From a bacterium (GTDB lineage Bacteria > Auribacterota > UBA3054 > JAAYZF01), in assembly GCA_012514975.1 (NCBI GenBank), contig JAAYZF010000159.1:1-55625 (forward strand): a stretch of DNA of 55,625 nt, written 5' to 3'. Both the position numbers and the translations under genes were made by a program. Positions 10,216 to 43,268 of the stretch are shown here, in pieces (within the stretch, counting starts at the first letter, position 1; each line of letters starts with the position of its first letter). The notes beneath the pieces are model-generated. The model searched no databases and was not told the DNA's origin. It saw only the letters and a program-made list of their open reading frames with translations.

Positions 10216-13200
10216 GTGAAGGCAATCATCGATATCGACTCAGGATCAGCTGTTCAAACCCTTAACCTCCAGCTCGGCGACGCAGGCGAGGTCATCCGCA
10301 TCACCCGCCTGTGCATCGATTCGAGCGGCGTGATCGAGCTGCACATCGAGTCCGCCGACGCCGAGGCGATCGCGCACGTGCCCGCACTGCGCAAGGCAGT
10401 CTCGGCCTGGGCGGGCGAGCATGCCACACAGGTGGTCGTCCGCGCGCGCTATGCGTCGGAACAATCGGTTGAGGACTACCTGAGGACGCACTGGCAGGAC
10501 ATCTGCTACGAGCTTCGTTCGTGCGGCGAGAAAGTGCTCGGGTTCCTCGAACCCTCGGCGTGGAGCGTTTCAAACGGCCATCTTACCATCAGCGTCTGCA
10601 GCGATCTCGCCGCCAAGGCCCTCGATGAGCGCGGCTGCGGCGCGATACTCCAGCAGTGCATCAAGCGGGATATCGGCAGCGAGTGCATCGTGTCGTTCGC
10701 CGCCGGCGATTTCACCGCGCAGATCGAGCAGAACCTCCAGCAACGCATGGAAGCGGCGCAGGAGGAAGCCCGCGCGCAGGCCGAGCAACAGAGCGCCGAA
10801 CGGGGCAGGGTGGTCTACGACACCGGCAAGTGCAAGGCCGGTGAACCGCAGGGCATACGCGACATCATCACCACCGGCGCCGGGCGCAAGCCCGTCACCA
10901 TCGACGGAAAGATCATCTCGTTCGACCCGCCCAGAGCGGGCAACGATTTCAGCCCCGCGCGCTTCAGCATCACCGACTACACCTCGTCGATCGAGTGCGT
11001 CATCTTCTCCGGCAGCCGCGGCGGGCCGAACAGCGGGCCGAAACAGGGGCCGCCCATCCCGGCGCTCGCGCCCGGCGAATGGGTGCGCGCCACCGGGTCG
11101 CTTGAGCTGCGGATGCGCGACCGCAACGCCCTGCCCGACCAGGCGCCCGAGTTCAACGTGCGCATCGAGCGCATCGAGCGTATTGACGACCCGGCCCGGC
11201 AGGACGCGGCGGCTGACAAGCGCGTCGAGCTCCACGCGCATACGAAGATGAGCCAGATGGACGGCGTGACCGATCTTTCCGAGCTCGTGGCCCGCGCGGC
11301 CAGGTGGGGCCATCCGGCCATCGGTATCACGGACCACGGCAATGTCCATTGCTTCCCCGACCTCCATTCGCTCGCGCGGAAACACAAGATCAAGGCGCTC
11401 TTCGGCATGGAAGCCTATCTCGCCAACCACCCGGCCGAGATCGTCGCCGCCGTCGCAGGAAGGAAAGGCTCGGGCGACAAGGGGCTGACGCGCGACGACA
11501 AGGCGGATTTCATGCAGAAGGTGTTCCACATCATCCTCTACGTGAAAAACGCGAAGGGCCTGCGCAACCTGTATGACCTGGTCACCCTGTCCCATTGCGA
11601 GTATTTCTACGGCAAGCCGCTCATACCGCGCGAAGTGCTCGAGGCGAAGCGCGAGGGCCTTGTCGTCGGCTCCGCGTGCGAACGCGGCGAAATCTACCGC
11701 CTGGCCCTCGAGCTGCATACGAAACGCATCACGCAGGCTGAATTCGAGGAACGCATCAGCCATGCAGCCCCGTTGTACGACTACTTCGAGATTCAGCCGC
11801 TCGCGAACAACCTGTTCTATGTAGCCAAGGGCATCCTGCAGTCGGAAGACGATCTCAAGGCGATCAACAGGAGAATCTGCGACGAGGGCGCGCGCCTTGG
11901 CAAGCCGGTCGCCGCCACCGGCGACGTCCATGTGCTCGATGAGCACGAAACGCTCTACCGCCGCATCCTCCACGTTGGCCAGGACTACGAAGCGGGCGGC
12001 GACGAGAGCGACACGCCCCTGTTCTTCCGCACGACGGGCGAGATGCTCGCCGAGTTCGCCTACCTGGGCGACGAGACGGCCCGCGCGGTCGTCATCGACA
12101 ACCCGCGCAGGATCATCGACGCGGTCGAGAGCGTCAGCCCGATCCCCTCCGGCTTCCATCCGCCCACAATCGACGGGTCGGAAGACGAGCTCACACGCCT
12201 GTGCGCCTCACGCTGCGCCGAGCTGTACGGAGAGCACCCGCATCCACTGGTGCTCAAACGGATGCACCGCGAGCTGGACGACATCATCCGCAACCATTTC
12301 GCCGACCTGTACATGCTCGCGCAGAAGCTCGTCAGGAAATCGCTCGATGACGGCTACATCGTCGGCTCGCGCGGCAGCGTCGGCTCGAGTTTCGTCGCGT
12401 TTCTCAGCGGCATCACCGAGGTGAACAGCCTGCCCGCGCATTACACCTGCCCGCGGTGCTTCCGCACCGAGTTCATCCACTTCGACGACAAGGGCGAGCC
12501 GCGCGCCGAGCCGCTCGACGGCATCGCCGTGGAAGTCGGCGTCGACCTCCCGCCCCGCGCGTGCCCTGCGTGCAAAACGGAGATGAACCGCGACGGATTC
12601 GACATTCCCTTCGAGACCTTCGTCGGCTTCGAGGGCAACAAGACGCCCGACATCGATCTGAACTTTGCCAGCGAGTATCAGTCGCGCGCCCATCAGTACG
12701 TCGAGCAGCTTTTCGGCAGGGAGTTTGTCTTCCGCGCAGGCACGATTGCCACGCTGCAGGACCGCACAACGTTCGGGTTCGTCAAGAAGTACCTCGAGCA
12801 GACGGGCGAGCAGTGGCCCGCCGCGGAGATCAACCGCATTGCGCTCGGGCTCACCGGCATCAAACGGACCACCGGGCAGCATCCGGGCGGCATGATCATC
12901 CTGCCCAAGAACAAAGCCATCACCGAGTTCACGCCCGTACACTTCCCTGCCAACGATGCGCGGAAGGGCCAGCAGACCACGCATTTCGACTATCACTCGA
13001 TGGAAGAGCAACTGCTCAAGCTCGACATCCTCGGCCATGACGACCCGACCAAGATTCGCCTGCTCACCGAGTACCTCGGCACGGATGTCACCGCGGTCCC
13101 GCTGAATGACAAGGCGACGCTGAGCATCTTCGCGGGCCTGTCGGCGCTCAACGTGCGCGAGCAGGACATCGGCACGCCGGTCGGCACGTTCGGCATCCCC

Positions 13201-30333: not shown

Positions 30334-32052
30334 TTAGTCGGATGCCGTCACGCGGAGCACTTCCTCGAGGGAGGTCAGGCCCTGCGCGGCGCGCATGAGG
30401 CCGACCCGGCGAAGCGTGTACATGCCCTGCTCGATGGCGAACCGTTTGATTTTCGAGGCATCCGTGTTCGTCAGGATCATGCGGCGCAGGTCTTCGTTGA
30501 CGATGAGCGCCTCGTTGATGGCCGTGCGGCCCGAGTAGCCGGTCTGGCGGCAGTAGGGGCAGCCCACGGGCTTGAAGAAGGTGGGCGTTTCGCCGGGCAT
30601 GGCCTTGAACTGCGCGCGTTCGAGCACCACGGGGTCGACGGTCGCCGGCTTCTTGCAGCGGGTGCACAGCCGGCGTGCAAGGCGCTGCGCGGCGATGAGA
30701 TTCACGGCCGAGGCGACAAGGTAGGGCTCGACGCCCATGTCGGTGATGCGGGCGAACGCGCTTGCCGCGTCGTTCGTGTGGATCGTGGTGAGCACGAGGT
30801 GCCCGGTGAGCGCGGCCTTGATCGCGATGTCCGCCGTCTCGAAGTCGCGCACCTCGCCCACCATGACGATATCAGGGTCCTGCCGCAGGATGGAGCGAAG
30901 GCCCGCGGCGAACGTGAGCTCGATGTCCGGGTTCACCTGCACCTGGTTGATGCCGGGGAACTGGTACTCGACGGGGTCTTCGACCGTCACGATGTTGACG
31001 CCGGGCTGGTTGAGGCGCTGGAGGCAGGCGTAGAGCGTGGTGGTCTTGCCGCTGCCCGTCGGGCCGGTGACGAAGATCATGCCGTGCGGCGCATCGAGCG
31101 CCTCCTTGAACCGCGCGAGGCTGTGCTCGTCCATCCCGATCTTGTCGATGTCCATGTTCTGGTAGGACTTGTCGAGGATGCGCATCACGATCTTCTCGCC
31201 ATGGACGGTCGGCAGGGAAGAGACGCGGAAGTCGACTTCGCGGCCCTTGGTGCGGATGCGGAACCGCCCGTCCTGCGGCAGCCGGCGCTCAGAGATGTCG
31301 AGCTGGGACATGACCTTGATGCGCGAGATGATCGCGCGGAGCATGGCGAACGGCGGGCTCGGGCGCTCGTAGAGCACGCCGTCAATGCGGTACCGGACGC
31401 CCATGCGCTTCTCGAACGGCTCGATGTGGATGTCGCTGGCGCGTTCATCGATGGCCTGCGTGAGGATCACGTTGACGAGCTTGACGACGGGCGCCGCGTT
31501 CGTCTCCTCGCGCATCCGGTCGATGTTGATCTCCTGCGTCGCGACGACGGCCTCGGTGACGTCCTCTTCGCCGAGATCGGCGATGATCTCCTCGAACCGC
31601 TCGGCCTGGTGGTAGTGCTTGTCGAGCGTGGCCTGGATGTCGGACGGCAGCGCGACGACGGGAATGACTTTCAGGTTCGTCATCAGGGCGATGTCGTCCA
31701 CGGCGAAGACGTTGAGCGGGTCGGCCATGGCGACCGTCAGGTAGCCGCCGACGCGACCGACCGGCACGGCCTTGTAGTAGAGCGCCACCTTCTCGGGCAC
31801 GAGCTCAAGCGTCTCCTGGTCGCAGGTGATCGTATCGAGCGACACGGGGGGCACATGGCACTGGCGCGCATAGCAGCCCAGCAACTGCTTCTCGGTGACG
31901 AGGCCGCGCGAGACGAGAAGCTCGCACTGTGATCCCCCGCGCAACTGCTGCTCGCGGAGCACGTCGAGCCGCTGGTCAATCGTGATCAACCCGCTTTCGA
32001 CGAGGACGTCGGCGAGTGAATCGGGAAAACTGGTGCTCGGTGCAGCGCTCAT
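30334..32052 (-). CDS. pilB: Type IV pilus assembly ATPase (PilB/GspE family)
   Basis: N-terminal T2SSE_N-like region, Walker A GPTGSGKTTT, and a tetracysteine cluster (CTRCKK...GCPYC). The ATG at 32052 gives an ATGA overlap with the upstream gene. An alternative ATG at 32091 would overlap by 43 nt. Confidence 0.9.
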   Translation of the reverse strand: MSAAPSTSFPDSLADVLVESGLITIDQRLDVLREQQLRGGSQCELLVSRGLVTEKQLLGCYARQCHVPPVSLDTITCDQETLELVPEKVALYYKAVPVGRVGGYLTVAMADPLNVFAVDDIALMTNLKVIPVVALPSDIQATLDKHYHQAERFEEIIADLGEEDVTEAVVATQEINIDRMREETNAAPVVKLVNVILTQAIDERASDIHIEPFEKRMGVRYRIDGVLYERPSPPFAMLRAIISRIKVMSQLDISERRLPQDGRFRIRTKGREVDFRVSSLPTVHGEKIVMRILDKSYQNMDIDKIGMDEHSLARFKEALDAPHGMIFVTGPTGSGKTTTLYACLQRLNQPGVNIVTVEDPVEYQFPGINQVQVNPDIELTFAAGLRSILRQDPDIVMVGEVRDFETADIAIKAALTGHLVLTTIHTNDAASAFARITDMGVEPYLVASAVNLIAAQRLARRLCTRCKKPATVDPVVLERAQFKAMPGETPTFFKPVGCPYCRQTGYSGRTAINEALIVNEDLRRMILTNTDASKIKRFAIEQGMYTLRRVGLMRAAQGLTSLEEVLRVTASD

Positions 32053-32507
32053 GTCGTACGCGTCTTCTCCTCCGCCAGCCGCCGCATGCATTCACGCCAT
32101 TCGCTGACGCGGCAGACGAACAGGAGGACTTCCTGGTATTTCGAGTTCCGGCTTCTCAGCAGTTCCGGCTGGAACGGGTTGGGCGTCGCGAGTGTCAGCA
32201 CGGGCCCAAGGCGGTCGACCGGGAAGCACTCGAAGGAGGTCATGAAATCCGCGGTGAACTCGTGCAGCAGCTCCTCGTTCGGCGCAACCTGGAGCAGCGG
32301 CAGATAGGGCAGCCCCGTCTCGGCGAGGACAAGCTGGAGAAGCTCGTTCTCCGTGAGACAGCCCGCGTCGACAAAATGCCCCGCCCAGCCGCCACCCTCG
32401 GCCGCGCGCACACGCTGGATTTCCGCAAGCTGCTCATCCTGGATCTTGCCGCGCTCGCGCAGGATCGTGTCGAGCGGCTTCCTCACCCATTGCGGTGCCG
32501 TTGCCAT
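32049..32507 (-). CDS. Stand-alone T2SSE_N (GspE/PilB N-terminal) domain protein
   Basis: 152 aa. LDTILRERGKIQDEQLAEI...LTENELLQLVLAETGLPYLPL...CFPVDRLGPVLTLATPNPF follows the GspE/MshE N-domain pattern. No ATPase domain. Confidence 0.7.
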   Translation of the reverse strand: MATAPQWVRKPLDTILRERGKIQDEQLAEIQRVRAAEGGGWAGHFVDAGCLTENELLQLVLAETGLPYLPLLQVAPNEELLHEFTADFMTSFECFPVDRLGPVLTLATPNPFQPELLRSRNSKYQEVLLFVCRVSEWRECMRRLAEEKTRTT

Positions 32508-33325
32508 CAGCGCACCCCCCTGTGCTCAAATGAATCCAGGAGCTGCCGCACGGTGACCGCATCCGTCGGATGGCTCCACGCGCCGATGAGCACCTGGCTG
32601 TTATGCGGGGGAGGGAGCGCCTGCTGCATCGCTTCGGCGATTGTCTTCACCTGCTGCGGATTGCGCCGTGTCACCCAGCCGACCCAGTAGCCGGCATCGG
32701 CGCGGCAGATCGCGTCGGGCACGCAGTTGACGCGCTTGAGCATCTCATAGAGCCACTGGGGAACACGCGTGTCGTCCGCTGCCTCTTCAGGCGTCACCAG
32801 GCTGTTCCGCCAGGAGAAGAAGCCGACGGGGTAATGGTTGCGTTCAGCCTCGCGCGTGACGTCCTCGACCCGCTGACGCAGCAGCGACGCCGGCACCAGC
32901 GGCGGCAGGCGAAAGCGCAGCGACTGCTGGCGCATCATCGCCCGGTACTGGTCGAGTTTGCGCCGCGCGGTGCGCACCTGGTCGTCCATATAGAGCACGA
33001 GGCGCTCGACGCGGTCAAGTTCGCGCGCGTTGATGTTCCGGCTGGCCGACTGCTCTGAGCCCAGCAGTTCATCCATTGTCCGCGCAATGTCAACGACGCC
33101 CCAGACGGTCGAGCGCATCACCACGAAGCCGACGCAGGCAAGAAAGATGCAGACAAGCAGCAGGATGCACAGCACGGCGTAGATGTCATGGGAGCGCGTG
33201 ACATGCGAGGTCACCACATAGACGCCCGCAAGCAGGGGGATCACGGCCATAAGCGCAAATGCCGTCACCATCCGCAGGCGAACACCGCGCGGCAGCATGA
33301 ACAAATGGCGGATTACATGTTTCAT
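32507..33325 (-). CDS. Two-TM membrane protein with a coiled-coil and a possible degenerate GGDEF-like C-terminal domain
   Basis: Two hydrophobic helices near the N-terminus. The C-terminal segment (VGFFSWRN...ICRADAGYWVGWV...VLIGAWS...) loosely follows GGDEF-domain topology with GGDEF replaced by DAGYW. True ATG at 33325 (track start 33328 is TTG). Confidence 0.55.
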   Translation of the reverse strand: MKHVIRHLFMLPRGVRLRMVTAFALMAVIPLLAGVYVVTSHVTRSHDIYAVLCILLLVCIFLACVGFVVMRSTVWGVVDIARTMDELLGSEQSASRNINARELDRVERLVLYMDDQVRTARRKLDQYRAMMRQQSLRFRLPPLVPASLLRQRVEDVTREAERNHYPVGFFSWRNSLVTPEEAADDTRVPQWLYEMLKRVNCVPDAICRADAGYWVGWVTRRNPQQVKTIAEAMQQALPPPHNSQVLIGAWSHPTDAVTVRQLLDSFEHRGVR

Positions 33326-33400
33326 CAACGCCCCCGGGTGCAGGCAGGGCCAGGGTTATGGCAGGAATGCCGGTTCACGGTCCACAGTCCGTATTGGAGC

Positions 33401-33429
33401 ATGCTACCAAAATCTCCTCTGTTTGTCAA
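33401..33429 (-). promoter_or_regulatory. Sigma-70-like promoter TTGACA-N17-TAGCAT (with TGg extended -10) upstream of the membrane protein/T2SSE_N/pilBC/pilSR block
   Basis: Read on the minus strand, ~70 nt upstream of ATG 33325. Confidence 0.55.
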
Positions 33430-33535
33430 GTCGCAATGATGCAAAAATACGCCGCATGGTTCATTGCAGAGTCATTATGAATAAAGGATTCACAGCGGGC
33501 GTCACCGCATGGCCTCTGTCTCAATTGCGCAAAAA

Positions 33536-33772
33536 TCACACGCCGTCGCCCTTCTGGCGCACCAGGCTGCCACAACGCGGACAGCGCACAAGCCGCTCGT
33601 CCTTGTCGCAGAAGAATTGGTGCAGGCATATGTCGCATGTCGCCAGCACCGCCGACGTGGGGACGAACCTCTTCCGCCGGGCGCGCCATTCGTCGAACAG
33701 CCACAGGCCGAGCAGGCCGGCGAGCGGCAGCATCACATAGAATCCGATCAGTGTTCCAATGGATACCGTCAT
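33536..33772 (-). CDS. Small membrane-anchored zinc-ribbon protein
   Basis: 78 aa. An N-terminal TM helix, then CDIC...CPRC (two CxxC pairs). Its ATG abuts the upstream stop. Confidence 0.6.
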   Translation of the reverse strand: MTVSIGTLIGFYVMLPLAGLLGLWLFDEWRARRKRFVPTSAVLATCDICLHQFFCDKDERLVRCPRCGSLVRQKGDGV

Positions 33773-34432
33773 TCAACGCGTCTTCTCGAACGTGATGGAA
33801 AGCCATGCGGCGGCGGTGCGCCCTGAAGCCGCGCCGTCATCGGGAAGCACTGCGCCGGCCGCCGCGAGCATGCGTTCGGCCATGGCGCGGGCCGCGCGGT
33901 CGAACCGGGGGTCGCCAGACGAGCGCGCAACGGCGATGGCCCGCGCGATACCGCCCGCATCGAGCTGGACACAAAGCAGCGCAGGCCGGAGCGGCACGCC
34001 GTCCGGCGCGGGCGATGACAGGGGCGCCATGGTGTGCGCATGGCGCGCAAGCGCCGGGTCAAGCCGCACTGCCCAGCGTCCGCCCTGGGCTGGAACCGTT
34101 GCCGTCAGCGAGCCCCGTGCGCCGGTTGCAGTGCGGACACCCGTGCCTTCTCCGCCGGGCCACGGTGCCAGGCGCACAGGTTCGGTGGATGGCGGCGTCA
34201 TGGGCGGTTCCTCCAGCCAAAGACGGTGGTTGCCCATGGTGTCGGGCGCGGCGGGGCGCGGCGCGGCACGGGCAAGGACGCGCGCTTCATGCGGCAGCGT
34301 CATGAGGACCAGGGCGGGGCGCACCGCCCATGAGCCCTGCGGCGACGGCGCAACACGCACAAGCAGCAGGAACAGCGCATGGACGCCCACCGCCGCCGCC
34401 AGGCACCACAGTCCTATGTGCCGCGCATTCAT
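33773..34432 (-). CDS. TonB-like protein (TM anchor, Pro-rich spacer, TonB_C-like domain)
   Basis: N-terminal TM (IGLWCLAAAVGVHALFLLLV), a Pro-rich middle, and a C-terminal VARSSGDPRFDRAARAMAER...ITF resembling the TonB C-terminal fold signature. Confidence 0.55.
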   Translation of the reverse strand: MNARHIGLWCLAAAVGVHALFLLLVRVAPSPQGSWAVRPALVLMTLPHEARVLARAAPRPAAPDTMGNHRLWLEEPPMTPPSTEPVRLAPWPGGEGTGVRTATGARGSLTATVPAQGGRWAVRLDPALARHAHTMAPLSSPAPDGVPLRPALLCVQLDAGGIARAIAVARSSGDPRFDRAARAMAERMLAAAGAVLPDDGAASGRTAAAWLSITFEKTR

Positions 34433-34944
34433 TCGGTCATTTCCTGCGGCTTCGCGTAGACCACGTTGGAGAACACCACACCGAGCATCCGCTCAGCCGC
34501 AACCATGTTGCTGAACGTCATGTCCGCGTAGCCTGCGTGGATGTAGCGCGGATATGTCTTGCGTTCAGTAAGATCGATGAGGATTTCCTTGCTGTACAGG
34601 TCGTCGTTCAGGTCGCGGGCGATGGCGCAGCGAACGCCGTCAAGCACGACCAGTTCGCACGCCGCGTTGGTCAGTCGCAAGGGAAATGCCGGAGCGTCGC
34701 CCGCGTGGACACCCAGGATCTGCATGTCATCGTGGAAGAACTGGTACACCGTCTCACCCGGCGGCGTGTTGCTCGCAAGCTCCATGCGCACACCGGCCGG
34801 CAGCGATGCAGCGGCAACCAGCGCGTTCGTCGTCACAGGCTCTTCGCCAAAGGGCACGGCAAGCCGGTCCACCCGGCAGGACACGGCGAACAGCGCGCAG
34901 GTCGCCAGCACCGCGGTCAGAATGCTGTCCTTCTTCGCTGCCAC
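34429..34944 (-). CDS. Hypothetical lipoprotein
   Basis: Track ORF 34429..35028 (GTG start). I prefer the in-frame GTG at 34944, which gives the signal peptide VAAKKDSILTAVLATCALFAVSC with a lipobox. ATGA-type overlap with the downstream gene. No recognisable domain. Confidence 0.5.
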   Translation of the reverse strand: MAAKKDSILTAVLATCALFAVSCRVDRLAVPFGEEPVTTNALVAAASLPAGVRMELASNTPPGETVYQFFHDDMQILGVHAGDAPAFPLRLTNAACELVVLDGVRCAIARDLNDDLYSKEILIDLTERKTYPRYIHAGYADMTFSNMVAAERMLGVVFSNVVYAKPQEMTE

Positions 34945-35005
34945 GTCGCTCGTACAAAGGATCACGCCGCCCGGCCAGGAGCGCCTGCTGGCGGCACTCC
35001 CGCAT

Positions 35006-35854
35006 TCACTCGTCGCGCAGGCGCGCACGCTCGATCACGCCATGCTCCATCGGCTTGTTCTTCAGCACCTCGCCGGGGCCGTACACGCCGCTGTTGATGC
35101 GCGTGAGCGGATAGACAATCGTCCGCGGCCTGAGGAAAGTCCCTGGATCGGACACCGCGTTGCACCCGACCTGCGCGTAGTCGCCGAGGATGATGCCGAC
35201 CTTACGCCTGCCCAGGTCAATCCGCCGGCCGTTGACCGTGATTTTTATGGTGCCGTGTCCGCCGAAGACGTTGACGTTGGCCGCCGTGGCCTGGTTGCCG
35301 AAGTGGCTGCCATAGCCGCATATGCTGTCGCCAAGGTAGGAAGGGTGCGGAAACTGGGCATTGTCCATGACCACGGCATTCTTCAACTCGCCGCGGATCA
35401 CATCGTTGCGGCCGATGATCACTCCGCCGCGCAGGTACGCACCCGGGCGGATTTCCGTGCCGCAGCCAATGAGTGCCGGGCCCGCGATCCACGCGCCCCA
35501 GACGCTCGCCCCGGCGCCGATGTGCACGTCGCCGGCCGCCACATCGTACTCGCCGCCGCGCACCACCGCGCCCGCGCCGACGATGATCCGCCCCGGGCGC
35601 CCGCCGCCAAACACTCTGCCGGGCTGGAACACCGCGCCGGCCTCCACATGCACCGCAACACCGTCGATCCGCTCCACGCGGCACGCAGGCCCGTGCTGCG
35701 CGGCAAGCCACTCGGCGCAGTAGGGCGCGATCTGTCCCAGAGCGTCAACAACCGTCTCGACACCCGCGCGGTGGAACAAGGCCTCGTGCTCGAAGGGATG
35801 GGCCGCAAAGTCGAAGTACGCGGCGACACGGAGTTCATCTGGAGCGTCGGGCAT
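35006..35854 (-). CDS. Left-handed beta-helix (hexapeptide-repeat) transferase, GlmU C-terminal-like
   Basis: Repeated [LIV]G-type hexapeptides. The segment PHPSYLGDSICGYGSHFGNQATAANV...LGDYAQVGCNAV resembles the GlmU acetyltransferase domain. No nucleotidyltransferase domain. Confidence 0.7.
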   Translation of the reverse strand: MPDAPDELRVAAYFDFAAHPFEHEALFHRAGVETVVDALGQIAPYCAEWLAAQHGPACRVERIDGVAVHVEAGAVFQPGRVFGGGRPGRIIVGAGAVVRGGEYDVAAGDVHIGAGASVWGAWIAGPALIGCGTEIRPGAYLRGGVIIGRNDVIRGELKNAVVMDNAQFPHPSYLGDSICGYGSHFGNQATAANVNVFGGHGTIKITVNGRRIDLGRRKVGIILGDYAQVGCNAVSDPGTFLRPRTIVYPLTRINSGVYGPGEVLKNKPMEHGVIERARLRDE

Positions 35855-36944
35855 GCGTGCGTGACCGTTTGACGTTCTTGAGAGGCATTCTCCCGCCGTC
35901 GTGATAGAGGAACCGGAACTGCGGCGTGCGCTTCTCGACTGCCTGGAGATAGCGGAAGAATTGCTCGCCCGTGTCGAAGACGTGGCCTTTCTCGATGTAG
36001 CTGTCGGTGACGAACGGGCTGAGCGCGCGGGGGAAGATCATGTAGCGGCCCTTGTGGTAGTCGCGCGCGTGGCCCAGCTCATCCATCATGCCCGTGCTGA
36101 GCGGGGGGCGTTCGAGGTAGGGATGGATGGCGACGACGGCGTCGCACTTGCCGACATACCAGTGAAGGTCGCGGTGCACGGTGAACGAATACGTCGCCTC
36201 CTTGTCCTTGAGATCGAGCCCGAGGTCCCCCGTCGCGATCTCGATCTTCTGCGGGTCGATGACCACGCCATACTCGCGGAGGCGCTCGATGAACGCGGTG
36301 ATCTGGCCGCGCACCAGCGGTTCCGAGTGCGTCATGCTGTAGCTCGCGTAGTACACCGGCGCATCCCTGTCCGCGAAGAAGGAAATGAGATTCTGCGGGG
36401 GCTCGCCGACTGCCATCACGATATGGCGGACGCCCATGACCTTGGCCCAGTCCTCGCTCAGGCTCACTTCCTCGTTCATCCAGGCGAGCACTTCGTAGAT
36501 GGTGTGGTTGCGTTCCTTGATCACCTGGAGGAACTTGTCCGCCTCGGGCGGATGTTCGAGGCGTTTCTTGATAAGCCACTCGGCGTCGATGAGGGTGACG
36601 ATCAGGTCCGGCGCGATGAACTCCCGGATGTACTTGCTGTCCTTGAACTTGCGGTTGATGCGGTTCCACTCGACGGTGGCGGGCGCACGGACGATGACGT
36701 GTTCGTGGCCGTGTTTCTCGATCTCGAAGCCGATGCGCTCGTACTCGCGCTCGCGGATGAGTTCGAGGATGTAGTCGGTCGTGCCGAGCAGGCGCTCCAT
36801 GGGCTTCTCGCCGCCGCGGGTAAGGCGGTCGACGACATCGAAGTACGCGATGTCGATGCCGTGCTGGCCGGCGCTGTCGCACACGCGGCGCAGCCATGCC
36901 CGGTCTTCCAGGCCGGCAATGATGCCGGTAACGAGAATGCGCAT
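35835..36944 (-). CDS. Two-domain hypothetical protein B: degenerate P-loop kinase-like N-domain plus nucleoside 2-deoxyribosyltransferase-like C-domain
   Basis: Starts MRILVTGIIAGLED at ATG 36944 (the track ORF extension to 37268 is rejected). C-terminal VYYASYSM...CDAVVAIHPYLERPPLSTGMMDELGHARDYHKGRYMIFP fits the NDT/SLOG-like pattern. Distant paralog of 37519..38589. Confidence 0.7.
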   Translation of the reverse strand: MRILVTGIIAGLEDRAWLRRVCDSAGQHGIDIAYFDVVDRLTRGGEKPMERLLGTTDYILELIREREYERIGFEIEKHGHEHVIVRAPATVEWNRINRKFKDSKYIREFIAPDLIVTLIDAEWLIKKRLEHPPEADKFLQVIKERNHTIYEVLAWMNEEVSLSEDWAKVMGVRHIVMAVGEPPQNLISFFADRDAPVYYASYSMTHSEPLVRGQITAFIERLREYGVVIDPQKIEIATGDLGLDLKDKEATYSFTVHRDLHWYVGKCDAVVAIHPYLERPPLSTGMMDELGHARDYHKGRYMIFPRALSPFVTDSYIEKGHVFDTGEQFFRYLQAVEKRTPQFRFLYHDGGRMPLKNVKRSRTHARRSR

Positions 36945-36966
36945 ACCTGTCCGTGGTCGGCGGCTG

Positions 36967-37464
36967 TTACAGCTCGTAGTTTCTCTGGTATTCGGCGATG
37001 ACGTCGCCCGCCATGCGGATGTCCCCGTTGGGGCATCCCCATATGTTGCAGAAGCAGACGGCGTTCTGGTTCGTCGGGTTCTCGTCAAGGGAGAACATGA
37101 CGAATTCGCCGTTCCACTGGCAGTCGCACGGCGCAAGAACGGGCATCTCGATTCCGCAGGCGGGGCAGCAGATGTGCAGGCGGTCGCCCACCTGGAACTG
37201 CTCGCCGCCGATCCGGTCGCGCCGTTTGAGAAAGGGGGTGATGGTAACCAGCTCGTCGCCGCGCTCACCGACCACGTGGACCTTGATGCCGGGCAGGCCG
37301 TTGAACTGCTTGTTGTCGTCCGACACGAGCATGTGGCCGCGCGGGCAGAACGCCTGGTGAATGTGGATCGAGCCCTCGAGGTGCACGCCGCGCTTTTTCA
37401 GCTCGTCCACCAGGTGTGTGCGTTCGGGCACAATCAGCCGTCCGTCATCGTCAAACCGTTGCAT
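36967..37464 (-). CDS. Cysteine-rich hypothetical protein (165 aa, 9 Cys)
   Basis: Cys clusters FCPRGH, ICCPACG, CDC and CFCNIWGCPNG. ATG preceded by AAGGTG. Sits between the two paralogs. Confidence 0.65.
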   Translation of the reverse strand: MQRFDDDGRLIVPERTHLVDELKKRGVHLEGSIHIHQAFCPRGHMLVSDDNKQFNGLPGIKVHVVGERGDELVTITPFLKRRDRIGGEQFQVGDRLHICCPACGIEMPVLAPCDCQWNGEFVMFSLDENPTNQNAVCFCNIWGCPNGDIRMAGDVIAEYQRNYEL

Positions 37465-37517
37465 AGATGCACCTTAAGTGTCTGGGAATCTGTTGAATCA
37501 TGTCATCCAGCAGGGCT

Positions 37518-37523
37518 ATTATA
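37518..37523 (-). promoter_or_regulatory. TATAAT box overlapping the stop of protein A, upstream of the Cys-rich gene
   Basis: Perfect TATAAT on the minus strand, 53 nt upstream of ATG 37464. Confidence 0.35.
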
Positions 37524-38589
37524 CTCCTTTGCCCCCTTTTTCGCCAGTGGCGCACGGCGTGAGCGCCGCGTCGGCAAACTCCGTGAACGCCGCGATGTCC
37601 GGGAAAATCCGCGTGCAGTACCGCTCGAAAAACGGGCTCCGCTGCCCGTCGAAGATGGCGTACACCGACTTGTTCCTCGTGTGCGCGTAGATCATTTCGC
37701 TGATCACGCCGGGCGAAAGCTTGTCCGTCGGGTAATAGACGACGATGAAATCGCTCTGGTCGATGAACCGGTAGTCGCGCGTGACGGTGCGGTGTTTGAC
37801 CTGCTGGACGACGGTCTCGTTCAGCTCCATGATGTCCAGCGCGCCGGTCTCGAGAGAGTCATGACGCTTCTCCGTTGCGTGCGCAAGCTCCATGTCCTTG
37901 ATATGAAGCGGGTCGAAGACGACGAACCGCGCGGTGAGGTCGCGGCCGAATTGCTGGATGGTCGCAAGGAGCTGGGGCCGCTCCCGGCGGATCGTCGTGA
38001 TCGGGTAGCTCAGGTACATCCGCGGCATCGCGCTGTCGAACAGCAGCTTCGCCAGGTTGTCCACGTAGTGATCGCGCGCGATCACCCAGCAGGGCTTCTG
38101 CTGGAAGTCGGCAAGCGTGCGCGTGACGAAATCCTCCTCGTCAAGCCAGGTGTTCAGGTCGTCAAGCGTCGGCGTGCGCTCCCACTCCTTGCTGTGCCTG
38201 ATCCGCTCGTGGATTTCCTTGAGATTGTCGACCACGTTGATGTAGACGTCCGGCTTCAGCTTCATGATGTCGCTGAAGTTGAACCCCGGGAGCAACTGGT
38301 TCCGCCACCGGAACGTCAGGTGAATGCTGATGAACGCGTCCTTGACCGACTCGATTCCGCGCAGGATGCGCTCGCACGCCGCAACGCGCAGCGCCTTGAG
38401 CAGGTTCGTGTCCACGTCAAGAATCCTCCCGTCCGAGATCGACAGCTTCTGTTCGTCTATGATCTCGAAGATCGTCTTGCCGATGTCGAAGACGCCCACG
38501 TTGTGCCCGTGCGTGTTGCAGTGCGCCGCCAGTTCCCCGGCCAGATCGCCTTTCTCGCTCCCGCTGATTCCCGTGAAGAGTACGCGCAT
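37519..38589 (-). CDS. Two-domain hypothetical protein A: archaeal-AdkA-like kinase fold (degenerate P-loop) plus nucleoside 2-deoxyribosyltransferase-like C-domain
   Basis: Starts MRVLFTGISGSEKGD at ATG 38589. By eye the N-domain is collinear with archaeal adenylate kinases. C-terminal MYLSYPIT...SDFIVVYYPTDKLSPGVISEMIYAHTRNKSVYAIF fits the NDT-like pattern. Confidence 0.7.
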   Translation of the reverse strand: MRVLFTGISGSEKGDLAGELAAHCNTHGHNVGVFDIGKTIFEIIDEQKLSISDGRILDVDTNLLKALRVAACERILRGIESVKDAFISIHLTFRWRNQLLPGFNFSDIMKLKPDVYINVVDNLKEIHERIRHSKEWERTPTLDDLNTWLDEEDFVTRTLADFQQKPCWVIARDHYVDNLAKLLFDSAMPRMYLSYPITTIRRERPQLLATIQQFGRDLTARFVVFDPLHIKDMELAHATEKRHDSLETGALDIMELNETVVQQVKHRTVTRDYRFIDQSDFIVVYYPTDKLSPGVISEMIYAHTRNKSVYAIFDGQRSPFFERYCTRIFPDIAAFTEFADAALTPCATGEKGGKGV

Positions 38590-38611
38590 AATGCCTGCTG
38601 AATGTCCGTGG

Positions 38612-39706
38612 TTAGCCGCTGGTCGCTGCAGCGCCACGCAGCCTGCGCAGCTGGCCGCACGCGGCGTTGATATCCACGCCCTTTCTCCGGCGGACGAGTG
38701 CATGGACCTGGTTGTGTTCGAGCTGGCGGAGGAACTGCGCCGTCTGGTCCTCCGTGGGCGCCTGGAACTCGTTGCTGAACACGGGATTGTACGGAATGAC
38801 GTTCACCTTGGAAGGCACCCGGTGGGCCAGCGCGGCAAGCTGCTGCGCATCGCGCTGCGAATCGTTGACATACGCGAGAAGCACATACTCGAACGTGATG
38901 TCCCGCCCCGTCGCGCGATGATAGGCTTCGAGCGCGCGCATCAGATCGAAGATCGTCGACGGGCAATGCGCGATCAGCCTGCGGCGCAGCGCGTCATGCG
39001 TTGCATGCAGCGAGATCGCCAGATTCATCTGCGGCGCGTCATGCGCAAGCTGCCTGATGCCGGGGATGACGCCCGTGGTGGAGACGGTCATCCTGCGCGC
39101 GCCGATGTGCATGCCATGCTCGTCGTTAAGGATGGCCACTGCCCTGATGAACTGGTCGTAGTTCAGCAGCGGCTCGCCCATGCCCATGAAGACGACATTG
39201 TTCACCGCCGCGCGCGCGTGGGCGTGCTGCGCGTGAAGCACCTGCTCGACGATCTCCCCCGCCGCAAGGTTCCGCGTGTACCCCTCGCTGCCGCTCGCGC
39301 AGAATGCACAGCGGATCGGGCAGCCCACCTGCGTCGAGACGCATACCGTCGCATGCGCGCCCATGGGAATCCAGACGGACTCGACCGCCTCGCCGTCGGG
39401 CAGGCCGATGAGCCGCTTCTCGCTGCGGTCGCTGCTCGTGTGCGTGGTGATGACATGCGTGCGCATTAACACGAGGCGCCGGGAGAGCTCCGCGCGCATC
39501 TCGCGGGACAGGTTGGACATCCGCGCGCCGTCGGCGGCGTTTTTCCTGTACACCCAGTCCCACAACTGCGCGGCGCGGAAACCGGGCCATCCCTGCGCGG
39601 CGCACCATGCGGCCGTTTCAGCGAAGGTCCATCCGGTGAACACCGGAAGCTCCTGTGCGCCCGTGCGCTGCGGCGTGCGACCGCCTGTGTGCAGTGTGCC
39701 GGTCAT
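38612..39706 (-). CDS. rlmN: 23S rRNA/tRNA (adenine-C2)-methyltransferase, radical SAM
   Basis: Radical-SAM CxxxCxxC motif (GCPIRCAFCASG), FMGMGEPLLN, and a C-terminal CGQL. 364 aa. Confidence 0.92.
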   Translation of the reverse strand: MTGTLHTGGRTPQRTGAQELPVFTGWTFAETAAWCAAQGWPGFRAAQLWDWVYRKNAADGARMSNLSREMRAELSRRLVLMRTHVITTHTSSDRSEKRLIGLPDGEAVESVWIPMGAHATVCVSTQVGCPIRCAFCASGSEGYTRNLAAGEIVEQVLHAQHAHARAAVNNVVFMGMGEPLLNYDQFIRAVAILNDEHGMHIGARRMTVSTTGVIPGIRQLAHDAPQMNLAISLHATHDALRRRLIAHCPSTIFDLMRALEAYHRATGRDITFEYVLLAYVNDSQRDAQQLAALAHRVPSKVNVIPYNPVFSNEFQAPTEDQTAQFLRQLEHNQVHALVRRRKGVDINAACGQLRRLRGAAATSG

Positions 39707-40461
39707 AGATCGTCTATGTCCGCCTGTGTGCCGCGAAGATCAACCACCTCATACCCGTCAAGCGCCGGCGTGAACGCGGCGGCGGCGACGGCAACGTTGG
39801 TCGTGACGCGCGAGATGGTCACAAGGATCACGTTGCCGTTCACATCCTCGATCGAAATGTTGTCCGGCAGCACCGCGTCCTTCGCGAACGAGACCGTGCG
39901 CCGGCGGCTTCGGCTGCGTTCCTCGATCCGGTACATCCCGTCGGCCTCCTTCACGGTCGCGCCGGACAGTGTGGAAGGCCACCAGCCGCCGGGCAGGCGC
40001 TGCAGCTCGGCAAAGAAGTACGCCGGGATGCGCACCGAGCGCAGGTGGTCGACGCGGTCGCAGACGTATGCCTGGCCCTTCATTTCGTCGATCAGGTACC
40101 ACGTGCCGCCGGTATGGAGCACGTCAAAGACCGGGAGGCCGAGCCGCGAGATGCGCATGCGCAGCGCCGCGCCGGGCTGCCAGAGGCAGACGGCCTTTGC
40201 ACGCACGCTCTGCGCGGCGTCGCTGCGTTCGATGCCGGTCCCCACGTCAATGTCGTGGATGCCCGGCATGTCGGCCGCGATGTTCATGGCGAATTTCGTC
40301 ACGCCGACGCCGTTGGTGCCGCGGGGGATGCCGGCGAGCACCGCGTCCGCCCGCGGCGCGTCAAGCGTGGTGAACGCGGGCGCGGCGCCGCGCCAGAACG
40401 CACAGCCGCCCAGCGCGAGCGCGCAGGCGGTCATTGCGACTGCAGAACGCCATTGATCCAT
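39703..40461 (-). CDS. Lipoprotein, possibly LolB/DUF4292-like
   Basis: Signal peptide with a lipobox (AVAMTACALALGGC). The size and beta-rich sequence fit lipoprotein-sorting folds. An alternative ATG at 40434 gives an ATGA overlap. The functional call is tentative. Confidence 0.5.
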   Translation of the reverse strand: MDQWRSAVAMTACALALGGCAFWRGAAPAFTTLDAPRADAVLAGIPRGTNGVGVTKFAMNIAADMPGIHDIDVGTGIERSDAAQSVRAKAVCLWQPGAALRMRISRLGLPVFDVLHTGGTWYLIDEMKGQAYVCDRVDHLRSVRIPAYFFAELQRLPGGWWPSTLSGATVKEADGMYRIEERSRSRRRTVSFAKDAVLPDNISIEDVNGNVILVTISRVTTNVAVAAAAFTPALDGYEVVDLRGTQADIDDL

Positions 40462-41093
40462 AGTTCACGGAAGGAAAGGGTTGTGTCATCGCCGCCAAGC
40501 GTGCGCACGCGCGTCTGGCGGATGCGGCCAGTCACCGTGTTCAGCCACACCACGTGCAGCATCGCCGACCGGCCATACTCGGCGAACGCCTGCTCGCGCT
40601 TCTCCCGCTGGTCCGGCCTCAGATACGCCGTGATGACCGTCTCGTCGCCCTCGACGCGCAGTTGGAAATCGAACGCGCGCCCGTCGGCAAAGGTGGCGAT
40701 TCCCAGCACGTCGTCGAGCACGCGCTCATGGCCGGCAAGAGGGCGGACATCCTGCCAGTCGTGCCCGGCGGACGCCGTCGTCGCCACGCCGTTGCTGACG
40801 AGAAGAAGGTAGCCGCACGGGCCCGCGACGTCCATGCGGAGCACGTCTGGCGCGGCGTATGCGATCGCGCAGTCGGCGTTCACCGGCTCGCGCAGCCCCG
40901 CTGTCCGACGCACCATGTGTGCCCTGGCAACAAGCGTGGTGATGCCGGCGACCGTGGCGCGCAACTGGCGCACGGTTCCCTCGAGGAATGCAGGCACCTC
41001 GCGCGCACCCGGCTGCTCGGGCGGGGCGCTCACCGCCGCGGGCGCCGCCGCGCAGCACAGGAGACAGATGCTCAGCCAGGGCTTCATCGCCAT
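40431..41093 (-). CDS. LolA-like / outer-membrane lipoprotein-sorting family protein
   Basis: Cleavable signal peptide (MAMKPWLSICLLCCAAAPAAVSA). About 200-aa beta-rich body resembling the LolA-like fold family. Tentative. Confidence 0.5.
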   Translation of the reverse strand: MAMKPWLSICLLCCAAAPAAVSAPPEQPGAREVPAFLEGTVRQLRATVAGITTLVARAHMVRRTAGLREPVNADCAIAYAAPDVLRMDVAGPCGYLLLVSNGVATTASAGHDWQDVRPLAGHERVLDDVLGIATFADGRAFDFQLRVEGDETVITAYLRPDQREKREQAFAEYGRSAMLHVVWLNTVTGRIRQTRVRTLGGDDTTLSFRELWINGVLQSQ

Positions 41094-41107
41094 CGTGTCC
41101 GTTCACG

Positions 41108-41671
41108 TCAGGCGCGCAGGTCGGGCATGCCGATCAGGTGCAGGAACTCCTGCCGCGTACGCGCGTCGCTTTTGAACCGGCCCTCCATGGCGCTGGTCGT
41201 CGTGTGCGAGCTCACCTTCTGCACGCCGCGCATCGCCATGCAGAGATGGGTGGCCTCGCAGACCACGCCGACGCCCATCGGCTTGAGATAGTCGTGCAGG
41301 CATCGTGCGATCTGCATGGTCATCCTCTCCTGCAGTTGCAGCCGCCGGGAGAATACATCCACAATCCGCGGAATCTTGCTCAGGCCGATGACGCGCCCCT
41401 TGGGCAGGTAGGCCACGTGGATCTTGCCGAAGAAGGGCAGGAGATGATGTTCACAGAGGCTGTAGAAATCGATGTTCTTCACGACCACCATCTCGTCGTA
41501 GTCCTCCTTGAAGATGGCGCCGTTCATCTCCTGCTCGATGTCCGCGGCGTACCCCGAGGAGAGGAACGCGTAGGCGTCAACCATGCGCGCGGGCGTGTCC
41601 CGCAGGCCCACGCGGTCAGGATCGTCTCCCAGCCTCTTGATGAACTCCCGGTAGAATTCCAGATCAGTCAT
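41108..41671 (-). CDS. folE: GTP cyclohydrolase I
   Basis: DTPARMV, FYSLCEHHLLPFFGK, GLSKIPRIV and QLQERMT motifs. 187 aa. Confidence 0.95.
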   Translation of the reverse strand: MTDLEFYREFIKRLGDDPDRVGLRDTPARMVDAYAFLSSGYAADIEQEMNGAIFKEDYDEMVVVKNIDFYSLCEHHLLPFFGKIHVAYLPKGRVIGLSKIPRIVDVFSRRLQLQERMTMQIARCLHDYLKPMGVGVVCEATHLCMAMRGVQKVSSHTTTSAMEGRFKSDARTRQEFLHLIGMPDLRA

Positions 41672-42081
41672 GCATGTTCCAGTGTCACCTTGTTGCGTTC
41701 CGATTCGGCGAGATCGAGCCGCACGAGCCGCACGCCTATGGCAGCGAGGGGCTCTTCGAGCCGGTGCGCGAGGACAAGGGCGACGTTCTCCATCGTGGTC
41801 ACCACGCCGCGCAGAAAGGGAACGTCAGTGTTAAGATCGCGGTGATCGAGCTCGTTGACCACCTCGCGCAGCAGCACCTCGTGCAGCAGCGTCACGTTCA
41901 CGATCATCCCCGTCTTCAGATCGTGCGGCCCGGTCACGCTCACCGTCAGGGCGTAATTGTGCCCGTGCCCGCCCGGCGTGGCGCATTTGCCGAACACGGC
42001 GCAGTTCTGCTCGTCGGTGAGCTCCGGGCTGTGCAGGCGGTGCGCGGCGCTGAAACAGACTGTGCGGCTGACGGTAAGCAT
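41668..42081 (-). CDS. 6-pyruvoyl-tetrahydropterin synthase / 6-carboxy-tetrahydropterin synthase (PTPS/QueD family)
   Basis: 137 aa from ATG 42081. FSAAHRL, FGKCATPGGHGHNY and LDHRDLN motifs. ATGA overlap with folE. The track extension to 42534 is rejected. Confidence 0.88.
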   Translation of the reverse strand: MLTVSRTVCFSAAHRLHSPELTDEQNCAVFGKCATPGGHGHNYALTVSVTGPHDLKTGMIVNVTLLHEVLLREVVNELDHRDLNTDVPFLRGVVTTMENVALVLAHRLEEPLAAIGVRLVRLDLAESERNKVTLEHA

Positions 42082-42083
42082 GG

Positions 42084-43268
42084 TCACTTCAGTATCGAGC
42101 TCGCCATGAGCGAGAAATTGGAGAACACGAAGTTGTGCACCTGCTCGCCGTTGAAGAAGTACCTGCGCTCGACGCGCGCGGAGATCGAAGTGTACACCTC
42201 GTAGGGGATCGTGTCCATCTCGCGGGCAAGCTCGTGCACGGTGATCTCGTCGCCAAGCTGCCTGCCGAGGAGGACGACTTCGTCTCCCACCATCACGTCG
42301 TTCACAAGGCCCAGGTCCACCGTCGTCTGGTCCATGCTGATGCGGCCGACCACCGGGTAGCGCATGCCGCGGATGAGCACATGGGCCCTGCCGCTGAGGA
42401 TGCGGTGGAACCCGTCGCCGTAGCCCACCTCGATGGTCGCGATCTTCGTGTGCTTCTTCGCCTTGTGCGCGGCGCCGTAGCCGATGCACTGCCCCGTGTA
42501 GACTTCCTTGATGAACGTCACGTTCGTCTTCCACGCAAGCAGCGGCCTGCCCGGGGCGTCCGTCCGCACTTTCCCGCCCGCCTGGGGGCAGCCGCCGTAC
42601 AGCAGTATCCCGGGGCGCACCATGTCGTAGTCGCAGTGCGCGATGTTCATGAACCCGCCGCTGTTCGCGATATGCTTGATCGGTATGTCGACGTTGCGTT
42701 CCTTCAGGTACTTGAGCACCCGCTTGAACCGGTCGTGCTGGCCGATCGCGTAGTGGATGTCATCCTCGTCGGCGGTGGCGAAGTGGCTCATGATGCCTTC
42801 CACCTGCAGGTTGCTGAGCTGCGTCGCCTTCCAGATGTCCTCGAGCGTGTGCTCGGCGTCGAACCCGATGCGCCCCATGCCCGTGTCGATCTTCAGGTGG
42901 ACGGGCAGCCGCGTGTGCAGCCGGCGCGACGCCTCGTTCATCGCATGCGCGTTCTCGAGGTCGACGATGATTGGCGTGATGCGGTGGACGAAGAGCGCCT
43001 TGGCGTCGTCCGGCTCGCACGGGCCGAGCACGAGGATGCGCGCCTCGGGCACGTAGGCCTTGATCTCGAGCGCTTCGCGCAGCGTCGCCAGCCCCAGCCA
43101 TTCCACCCCGAACTCGTGCGCCGCCTTGGCCATCGCTTCGAGCCCGTGGCCGTAGGCATTGGCCTTCAGCGGCACCATCAGCTTGCACCCCTGCGGCAAA
43201 GCGGCGCGCACAAGCCGGATGTTGTCCCGGAAGGCATTAAGGTCGATTTCCGTCCACGAGTAGTACAT
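42084..43268 (-). CDS. alr: Alanine racemase
   Basis: MYYSWTEIDL..., PLP-lysine motif VPLKANAYGHG, and a C-terminal beta domain. ATG at 43268. The track extension to 43703 is rejected. Confidence 0.92.
   Translation of the reverse strand: MYYSWTEIDLNAFRDNIRLVRAALPQGCKLMVPLKANAYGHGLEAMAKAAHEFGVEWLGLATLREALEIKAYVPEARILVLGPCEPDDAKALFVHRITPIIVDLENAHAMNEASRRLHTRLPVHLKIDTGMGRIGFDAEHTLEDIWKATQLSNLQVEGIMSHFATADEDDIHYAIGQHDRFKRVLKYLKERNVDIPIKHIANSGGFMNIAHCDYDMVRPGILLYGGCPQAGGKVRTDAPGRPLLAWKTNVTFIKEVYTGQCIGYGAAHKAKKHTKIATIEVGYGDGFHRILSGRAHVLIRGMRYPVVGRISMDQTTVDLGLVNDVMVGDEVVLLGRQLGDEITVHELAREMDTIPYEVYTSISARVERRYFFNGEQVHNFVFSNFSLMASSILK

Follow-up and report, generated by a model that had tools for sequence, protein, structure and literature searches.

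A 55,625-nucleotide stretch of bacterial DNA (contig JAAYZF010000159.1; hereafter the window) carries on its minus strand the genes for two related two-domain proteins, termed A and B, a cysteine-rich protein (the Cys protein) and a left-handed beta-helix (LbH) acyltransferase-like protein. From their sequences, A and B are proposed to be N-glycosidases of nucleoside or deoxynucleoside monophosphates ((d)NMPs), of the DNPH1/MilB type and fused to a degenerate adenylate kinase (AK)-like domain; B would work with the deoxyribose-phosphate aldolase DeoC in most lineages. We give this reading a probability of about one half. The C-terminal domain is compared below with DNPH1 and with nucleoside 2-deoxyribosyltransferases (NDT). 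Together with the preceding RlmN gene, the four genes form a run of five co-directional minus-strand genes (35006-39706), as follows:

38612..39706, minus strand: RlmN, context gene; TIGR00048 at 343 bits (cut-off 290)
37519..38589, minus strand: protein A, 356 amino acids (aa); AAA_17 and PF05014 matches, family profile
Domains of A: AK-like, about aa 1-185 (roughly 38035-38589); NDT/DNPH1-like, about aa 188-340, with key residues Y192, D272, S292, G294, E298, S318 and F320
36967..37464, minus strand: Cys protein, 165 aa; motifs CPxGH, CPxC, CDC and CxCxxWGC
35835..36944, minus strand: protein B, 369 aa; AlphaFold2 (AF2) model, Foldseek, hhalign to DNPH1
Domains of B: AK-like, aa 1-191 (36372-36944); NDT/DNPH1-like, aa 192-345, with key residues Y199, D259, S283, G285, E289, S309 and F311
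35006..35854, minus strand: LbH protein, 282 aa, stand-alone; match to the C-terminal domain of ST0452

The intergenic gaps are 22 nt (RlmN-A), 54 nt (A-Cys) and 22 nt (Cys-B), and the B and LbH genes overlap by 20 nt. These coordinates, gaps and overlap, and the nine cysteines of the Cys protein, had been given correctly in an annotation made from the DNA letters alone, referred to below as the original prediction.

A and B are diverged paralogs with a degenerate adenylate kinase-like domain

By sequence comparison, A and B are true paralogs, diverged members of one uncharacterised two-domain enzyme family. BLASTP aligned them over 337 collinear residues with 24% identity (E 2e-13), in agreement with the distant paralogy and common two-domain layout originally proposed. 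Both families are sizeable. At least 385 clusters, all annotated as hypothetical, belong to the B family, and at least 221 homolog clusters (35-44% identity) were retrieved for A in a protein search, along with 224 metagenome loci. No curated family spans the whole of either protein. A search of curated libraries and of the literature yielded no characterised single-function family for A and B, as had been supposed, and in the literature no characterisation of A or B, of a kinase-NDT fusion or of a bacterial DNPH1 with DeoC was found, nor anything pertinent under PF05014.

The N-terminal domain has the fold of an archaeal-type adenylate kinase with a degenerate P-loop, as indicated by profiles, a predicted structure and a fold search. 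The N-domain of A passes the Pfam AAA_17 threshold (38.2 bits for a gathering score of 27), and a profile built from 24 A-family sequences matched archaeal adenylate kinases among PDB sequences at E 1.8e-8; no match among PDB sequences was obtained with the B-family profile. For B, AlphaFold2 was run on a 91-sequence alignment of the A and B families, and the model reached a predicted local distance difference test score (pLDDT) of 90.8 and a predicted template modelling score (pTM) of 0.89. The best PDB match of this model in Foldseek was the archaeal adenylate kinase 6ln3, with a target-normalised template modelling (TM) score of 0.78, a root mean square deviation of 3.2 A and E 3e-7, and adenylate kinases accounted for all 50 best PDB fold matches listed for the full-length model. 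The resemblance to archaeal adenylate kinases, first noticed by eye, is thus borne out by AAA_17, the A-family profile and the B model.

The absence of a canonical P-loop in both proteins, also part of the original prediction, was confirmed. The P-loop region of B reads TGIIAGLED (family consensus TGMIAGMDD), without Lys and with two acidic residues, and that of A reads GISGSEKGD (consensus GISCSGRKE); the Walker-A pattern G-x-P-G-x-G-[KG]-[ST]-T is found in neither. Across both families the first Gly alone is conserved in the P-loop columns, and the Thr/Ser following the Lys is absent throughout. In the alignment of the A-family profile the LID arginines of AdkA are likewise unmatched. With the Lys/Thr of Walker A lost along with the LID arginines, we read the N-domain as a pseudo-kinase, probably without kinase activity; it may serve in nucleotide binding, regulation or oligomerisation. 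Archaeal adenylate kinases are trimers. Compared with AdkA, the N-domains of A and B are similar in fold and collinear in sequence but are joined to a second domain and score far below the cut-off of the NCBIfam model of archaeal adenylate kinases, NF003122 (A, 24 bits for a cut-off of 155; B, no match).

The whole B model also matched a 294-aa viral protein (BFVD A0A8S5VIY1; 337 aligned columns, E 4.9e-6), which could be a phage-encoded two-domain relative.

The C-terminal domain carries a DNPH1-like set of conserved residues

The best Pfam match of the C-domain is PF05014, the NDT family, to which A scores 19.8 bits (E 9e-4) and B 13.9 bits; 39 of the 91 A and B family members match at E <= 0.01, the best at 9e-7. 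In Foldseek the C-domain of the B model matched viral NDT models with probability 1.00 and target-normalised TM scores of 0.55-0.63, and its beta-alpha-beta order agrees with the flavodoxin-like NDT fold. The NDT-like character proposed for these domains is therefore supported by the PF05014 matches of the relatives and by the viral fold matches. The catalytic Glu of NDT, which the original prediction had noted as kept in both proteins, corresponds to E289 in B and E298 in A, and is invariant in the 91 sequences. Weak matches to the SLOG model LDcluster4 were seen in nine of them.

The domain was aligned with human DNPH1 and Lactobacillus leichmannii NDT, using reference sequences about 100% identical to the PDB entries. 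DNPH1 (also Rcl) is a 2'-deoxynucleoside 5'-phosphate N-hydrolase, described too as a 5-hydroxymethyl-dUMP N-hydrolase; it is a dimer of animal origin, and the C-domain belongs to the same fold class. With hhalign the C-domain profile matched human DNPH1 at E 5e-4, and greedier settings gave a collinear alignment over 127 columns. Residues of B that are invariant in the family fall on functional positions of DNPH1 (rat numbering): Y199 on Tyr13, D259 on Asp69, S283 on Ser87, G285 on Gly89, E289 on Glu93, S309 on Ser117' and F311 on Met119'. The invariant Tyr, Asp, Ser-x-Gly, Glu, Ser and Phe of A and B thus follow the DNPH1 pattern, and the DNPH1 motif Ser87-x-Gly89...Glu93 is matched by S283-x-G285...E289 of B. 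In DNPH1, Ser87 and Gly89 bind the 5'-phosphate whilst Glu93 and Met119' touch the ribose (PMC3834327).

In the alignment with L. leichmannii NDT (PF05014; 1F8X), E289 falls on the nucleophile Glu98, the equivalent of Asp72 is kept, and S283 falls on Asp92. The Asp92 position is occupied by an invariant Ser in both the A and B families (S292 in A). Asp92 of NDT is a ligand of the 5'-OH of nucleoside substrates, and the family thus has the Ser of the nucleotide type where the nucleoside type has Asp, which points to a nucleoside-5'-monophosphate N-glycosidase. The only PDB sequence match of the C-domain profile was a weak one to the CMP N-glycosidase MilB (4JEN; E 0.47), with which the domain has the motif SPG...E.G.A in common. 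MilB and BlsM are single-domain enzymes from antibiotic gene clusters. The profile and fold matches thus show the fold of the C-domain, the alignments show that its catalytic constellation is conserved, and (d)NMP N-glycosidase activity is predicted.

B-family genes are often followed by deoC

Verrucomicrobiota and Lentisphaeria carry the B family in at least 130 species-level genomes, among them those of the methanotrophs Methylacidiphilum and Methylacidimicrobium. The B proteins of these two genera are about 60% identical to those of Verrucomicrobium, 'subdivision 6' and Opitutales, and identity is 56-58% in Lentisphaeria. Sequence of 900 nt or more downstream of B was available at 80 loci, and in 31 of them the next gene, on the same strand and 0-190 nt away as measured from tblastn ends, is deoC. 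The deoC calls rest on NCBIfam TIGR00126 (227-249 bits for a cut-off of 117). The B proteins linked to deoC show mutual identity down to 57% and belong to two of the five B sequence clusters, and deoC is the commonest neighbour of B outside the window's clade. Since a DNPH1-type reaction yields deoxyribose 5-phosphate (dR5P), the substrate of DeoC, this neighbour is the main functional lead.

Members of the A family were found in Poribacteria, Sphingobacteriales and others, as well as on archaeal-looking contigs, so that the family would span bacteria and archaea. Their neighbours vary: DUF711 was seen in 9 loci, a RimK-type ligase in 7 and an enoyl reductase in 7. The RimK ATP-grasp ligase was rejected as a general partner of A, being present in 7 of about 82 loci only and probably in one lineage. 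In L143, L163, L167, L171 and L173 the A-family gene is directly upstream of DUF711 (UPF0210) and near a PcrB/GGGP-synthase gene.

Composition of the gene cluster in related contigs

A, the Cys protein and B had been predicted to form a three-gene module. Contigs of the window's clade, whose B proteins are 74-77% identical, show the following gene orders:

RlmN-A-Cys-B-LbH: window
A-Cys-B-LbH: L006, L007, L094, L095, L096
RlmN-Cys-B-LbH: L011, L012
RlmN-Cys-LbH: L091, L092
Cys-LbH: L093

The genes for the Cys and LbH proteins are the sole constant pair across the related contigs whereas A and B come and go, and the three-gene module does not hold in its proposed form. The synteny of the trio held in part: within one clade the whole quartet is syntenic, and beyond it this arrangement is absent, as the other 73 B loci have neither the Cys nor the LbH gene within about 6 kb. 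Given this variable composition and the absence of the Cys and LbH genes elsewhere, the trio does not behave as a fixed functional unit. The flanks of the four-gene block differ between the window, L006/L007 and L094, and that it persists while its surroundings change speaks for a degree of selective coupling in this clade. The data fit two pairs or elements, one made up of Cys and LbH and the other of B, alone or joined by A, sharing an operon in one lineage. We regard the four-gene cluster as a lineage-specific, operon-like, loose neighbourhood in which the Cys and LbH proteins form a pair of their own, only tentatively linked to A and B.

Proposed reaction and alternative explanations

According to the proposed mechanism, the C-domain would bind a nucleoside 5'-monophosphate, the 5'-phosphate being held by the invariant Ser-x-Gly and the second Ser, and the invariant Glu (E289 in B, E298 in A) would cut the base-sugar bond with the help of the conserved Tyr and Asp. 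The predicted products are a free base and (deoxy)ribose 5-phosphate. With DeoC, B could thus take a dNMP to base and dR5P, and dR5P on to glyceraldehyde-3-phosphate and acetaldehyde, either for catabolism or as a sanitising step against non-canonical dNMPs, like that of DNPH1 on 5-hydroxymethyl-dUMP. The predicted dR5P product agrees with the deoC neighbour of B. In the window's clade, the B gene is flanked by those of the probable Zn-binding protein and the LbH acyltransferase-like protein, and a second paralog, A, has been added.

Several observations count against this proposal. The PF05014 scores of A and B lie under the Pfam gathering score of 28.8, and against single-sequence templates hhalign gave low probabilities of 21-31%. 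The phosphate loop of DNPH1, GSIRGG, is replaced in A and B by Y-[AL]-S-Y-[SP]-[MI]-T, in which the Tyr alone aligns with the DNPH1 loop, plus the Ser in B. In the genomes, deoC never adjoins A-family genes, it is missing beside B in the window's clade and anywhere in the 55-kb window, and the deoC link is absent from the B loci of Lentisphaeria and from roughly half of the verrucomicrobial loci. A ThiF/MoeB-family gene takes the place of deoC after B in 17 loci (L025, L028, L030-L035, L040-L043, L045, L048, L050, L057 and L083), all from freshwater 'subdivision 6'/Methylacidiphilales metagenome-assembled genomes that probably represent one lineage; no recurrent gene downstream of B besides deoC and the ThiF family was seen. 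Moreover, an identity of about 60% between B proteins of different classes is higher than expected for a simple salvage or catabolic enzyme, and specificity for ribo- or deoxyribonucleotides is not readable from the sequence.

Other explanations were weighed against the same data. A and B might be classical nucleoside 2-deoxyribosyltransferases that exchange bases in salvage, the kinase-like domain then phosphorylating the product. PF05014 is indeed the best Pfam match, the catalytic Glu and the Asp72 equivalent are kept, and the structural matches are to viral NDT models; but the invariant Ser in place of Asp92 is a feature of nucleotide hydrolases, a P-loop without Lys/Thr lacks what phosphotransfer needs, and the DeoC link demands a sugar product phosphorylated at the 5 position, which makes a transferase improbable. 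Were both domains mere ligand binders, A and B would be non-catalytic or regulatory nucleotide sensors, as the degenerate kinase site and the sub-threshold scores to enzyme families might suggest. This is likewise improbable, as the invariance of the catalytic Glu, Tyr and Asp and of the phosphate-binding Ser-x-Gly across two families only ~24% identical is typical of a working active site. NDT-like and SLOG folds recur in defence systems, some retron NDT-like effectors act as N-glycosidases of NAD+ or signal nucleotides, and the nine weak LDcluster4 matches point the same way, so that a role of A and B as such enzymes in a conflict or defence system was considered. It was rejected as highly improbable: PADLOC assigned no family to A, the Cys protein, B or LbH at E <= 1, B is carried on the chromosome in housekeeping surroundings and is conserved across a phylum, and no mobile-element or defence-island context was seen.

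A different kind of explanation concerns the cluster as a whole, whose four products could be subunits or successive steps of one pathway making or remodelling a nucleotide-derived or amino-sugar metabolite, with A and B as N-glycosidases or transferases, LbH in charge of acylation and the Zn protein as scaffold or carrier. The four genes do keep one order and close spacing, at 58-82% protein identity, in at least six contigs and in at least three flanking contexts (the window, L006/L007 and L094), and B and LbH overlap by 20 nt. We consider a single pathway unlikely nonetheless, since sister lineages carry Cys-LbH without A and B or Cys-B-LbH without A, 73 B loci do without either partner, and the more distant Cys-family genes are found beside unrelated ones. 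Equally unlikely, in our view, is a more ambitious form of the N-glycosidase reading, by which A and B would constitute a new enzyme class in which a DNPH1-like glycosidase is gated by, or under the allosteric control of, a catalytically dead archaeal-AK domain. B and DeoC would then form an undescribed route of deoxynucleotide breakdown or sanitation bypassing nucleoside phosphorylases and phosphopentomutase, and the window's clade would have recruited the pair with the Zn protein and LbH for a nucleotide- or amino-sugar-derived product.

The (d)NMP N-glycosidase reading also places A and B relative to known enzymes. DNPH1 is a stand-alone protein of ~150-170 aa, whereas A and B add a 190-aa AK-like domain in front, have lost the GSIRGG loop and are only marginally similar in sequence. 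NDTs agree in fold and in the Glu98 and Asp72 equivalents but differ from A and B by the absence of a kinase-like fusion, by Asp92 and by the likely substrate, which for A and B would be a nucleotide and not a nucleoside. MilB and BlsM are similar in motif and in using an NMP, the substrate predicted for A and B, although the profile match to MilB is poor. PpnN/LOG-type and Amn nucleosidases join an NMP N-glycosidase to nucleotide-responsive domains, a general logic like that of A and B, but come from other catalytic families with other accessory domains, and no sequence match beyond the nine weak SLOG matches was found. If the N-glycosidase reading is true, a function would be assigned to several hundred protein clusters, a DNPH1-type, phosphorylase-independent step, of which we found no description, would be added to bacterial deoxynucleotide catabolism or pool sanitation, and another kinase fold would prove to have been put to non-catalytic use. 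It makes a specific, testable prediction for a large conserved hypothetical family, namely a dNMP/NMP N-glycosidase coupled to DeoC.

The Cys and LbH proteins

The Cys protein has cysteines at positions 40, 99, 100, 103, 113, 115, 137, 139 and 144. Eight of them and one His (C40, H44, C100, C103, C113, C115, C137, C139 and C144) are invariant in close homologs, and the wider family keeps the core ligands C40/H44/C100/C103 and C115/C139/C144. The original suggestion of a Zn or Fe-S site was a reasonable guess, and two Zn sites fit the conserved ligands better; the protein is probably a mostly beta protein with two zinc sites rather than an Fe-S cluster. A hidden Markov model search of 1.84 billion representative proteins returned 133 clusters of this family, 81 of them at E <= 1e-10, mostly stand-alone proteins of ~160 aa. 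Its AF2 model is confident (pLDDT 85.9), and a fold search with this model against the PDB gave no match (best E 0.42, TM < 0.22). The Cys family, with its 133 clusters and a confident model that matches nothing in the PDB, thus poses a small problem of its own. A segment similar to its aa 30-107 (window 37144-37377) was seen between HisKA and HATPase_c in two histidine kinases, P0368 and P0385 (E 1.6e-5 and 7e-4), from which the N-terminal half may be an autonomous Zn-binding or sensor module. The 177-aa gene beside a Poribacteria A homolog showed no homology to the Cys protein.

Residues 119-265 of LbH match the C-terminal acetyltransferase domain of Sulfolobus tokodaii ST0452 (residues 255-400; 5z09/2ggo) at E 2.4e-21. 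The NCBIfam model Arch_glmU is covered at positions 246-390 only (104 bits for a cut-off of 292); no nucleotidyltransferase domain was found with NCBIfam, and LbH therefore does not have the bifunctional GlmU-type layout.

Genomic context of the window and of related loci

No terminator-like site was found on the minus strand between the genes of the cluster, the one weak match lying inside the A coding sequence, and A, Cys, B and LbH probably share a transcript. The in-frame G+C content at third codon positions (GC3) is 0.84-0.88 in all five genes (0.86-0.88 in A, Cys and B), as in their neighbours. This likeness and the many homologs of each indicate that A, Cys, B and LbH are real genes, and horizontal transfer of A, Cys and B was set aside for lack of a signal, their GC3 being equal to that of the surrounding genes. 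A search for RNA families in window 32000-43000 (E <= 1) detected no riboswitch or other RNA leader, and in 11 related loci it returned tRNAs and group II intron pieces only, with no leader that would name a ligand.

The chromosomal surroundings are of an ordinary, housekeeping kind, with alanine racemase, a GT4 glycosyltransferase, 6-pyruvoyl-tetrahydropterin synthase (PTPS, QueD-like) and FolE (GTP cyclohydrolase I) upstream and type II secretion E/F downstream. The FolE and PTPS genes (41108-42117, minus strand, 4-nt overlap) are on the same strand as A, about three to five genes upstream of it, which hints at a gene pair for a pterin or 7-deazaguanine precursor. A queuosine or pterin link of the cluster was discarded, as the pair is several genes distant and is not conserved beside A or B elsewhere. 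Past LbH (33536-35028, minus strand) are genes for a 199-aa protein, a TonB-C-like 219-aa protein and a 78-aa open reading frame with CxxC...CxxC. None of them is kept beside the cluster in other loci, and the 199-aa protein had no family match and no homolog in related loci.

Genes for rRNA methyltransferases recur near the cluster and near B. RlmN precedes the Cys gene in L011, L012, L091 and L092, and it precedes A in the window and L097, and an RsmE gene is divergent from B in six loci (L008, L009, L010, L065, L077 and L079). These neighbours are probably inherited synteny; a link to rRNA modification was rejected, since it is the Cys gene, and not B, that RlmN accompanies, and there is no mechanistic support. 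The B locus of Verrucomicrobium sp. 3C (L070) is flanked by group II intron D1-D4 fragments (5802-5944 and 12621-12761). A tRNA gene is located ~80 nt upstream of B in L020 (5851-5923), and tRNA genes lie 0.7-3 kb upstream in other B loci, with one also marked in L022 (5257-5329).

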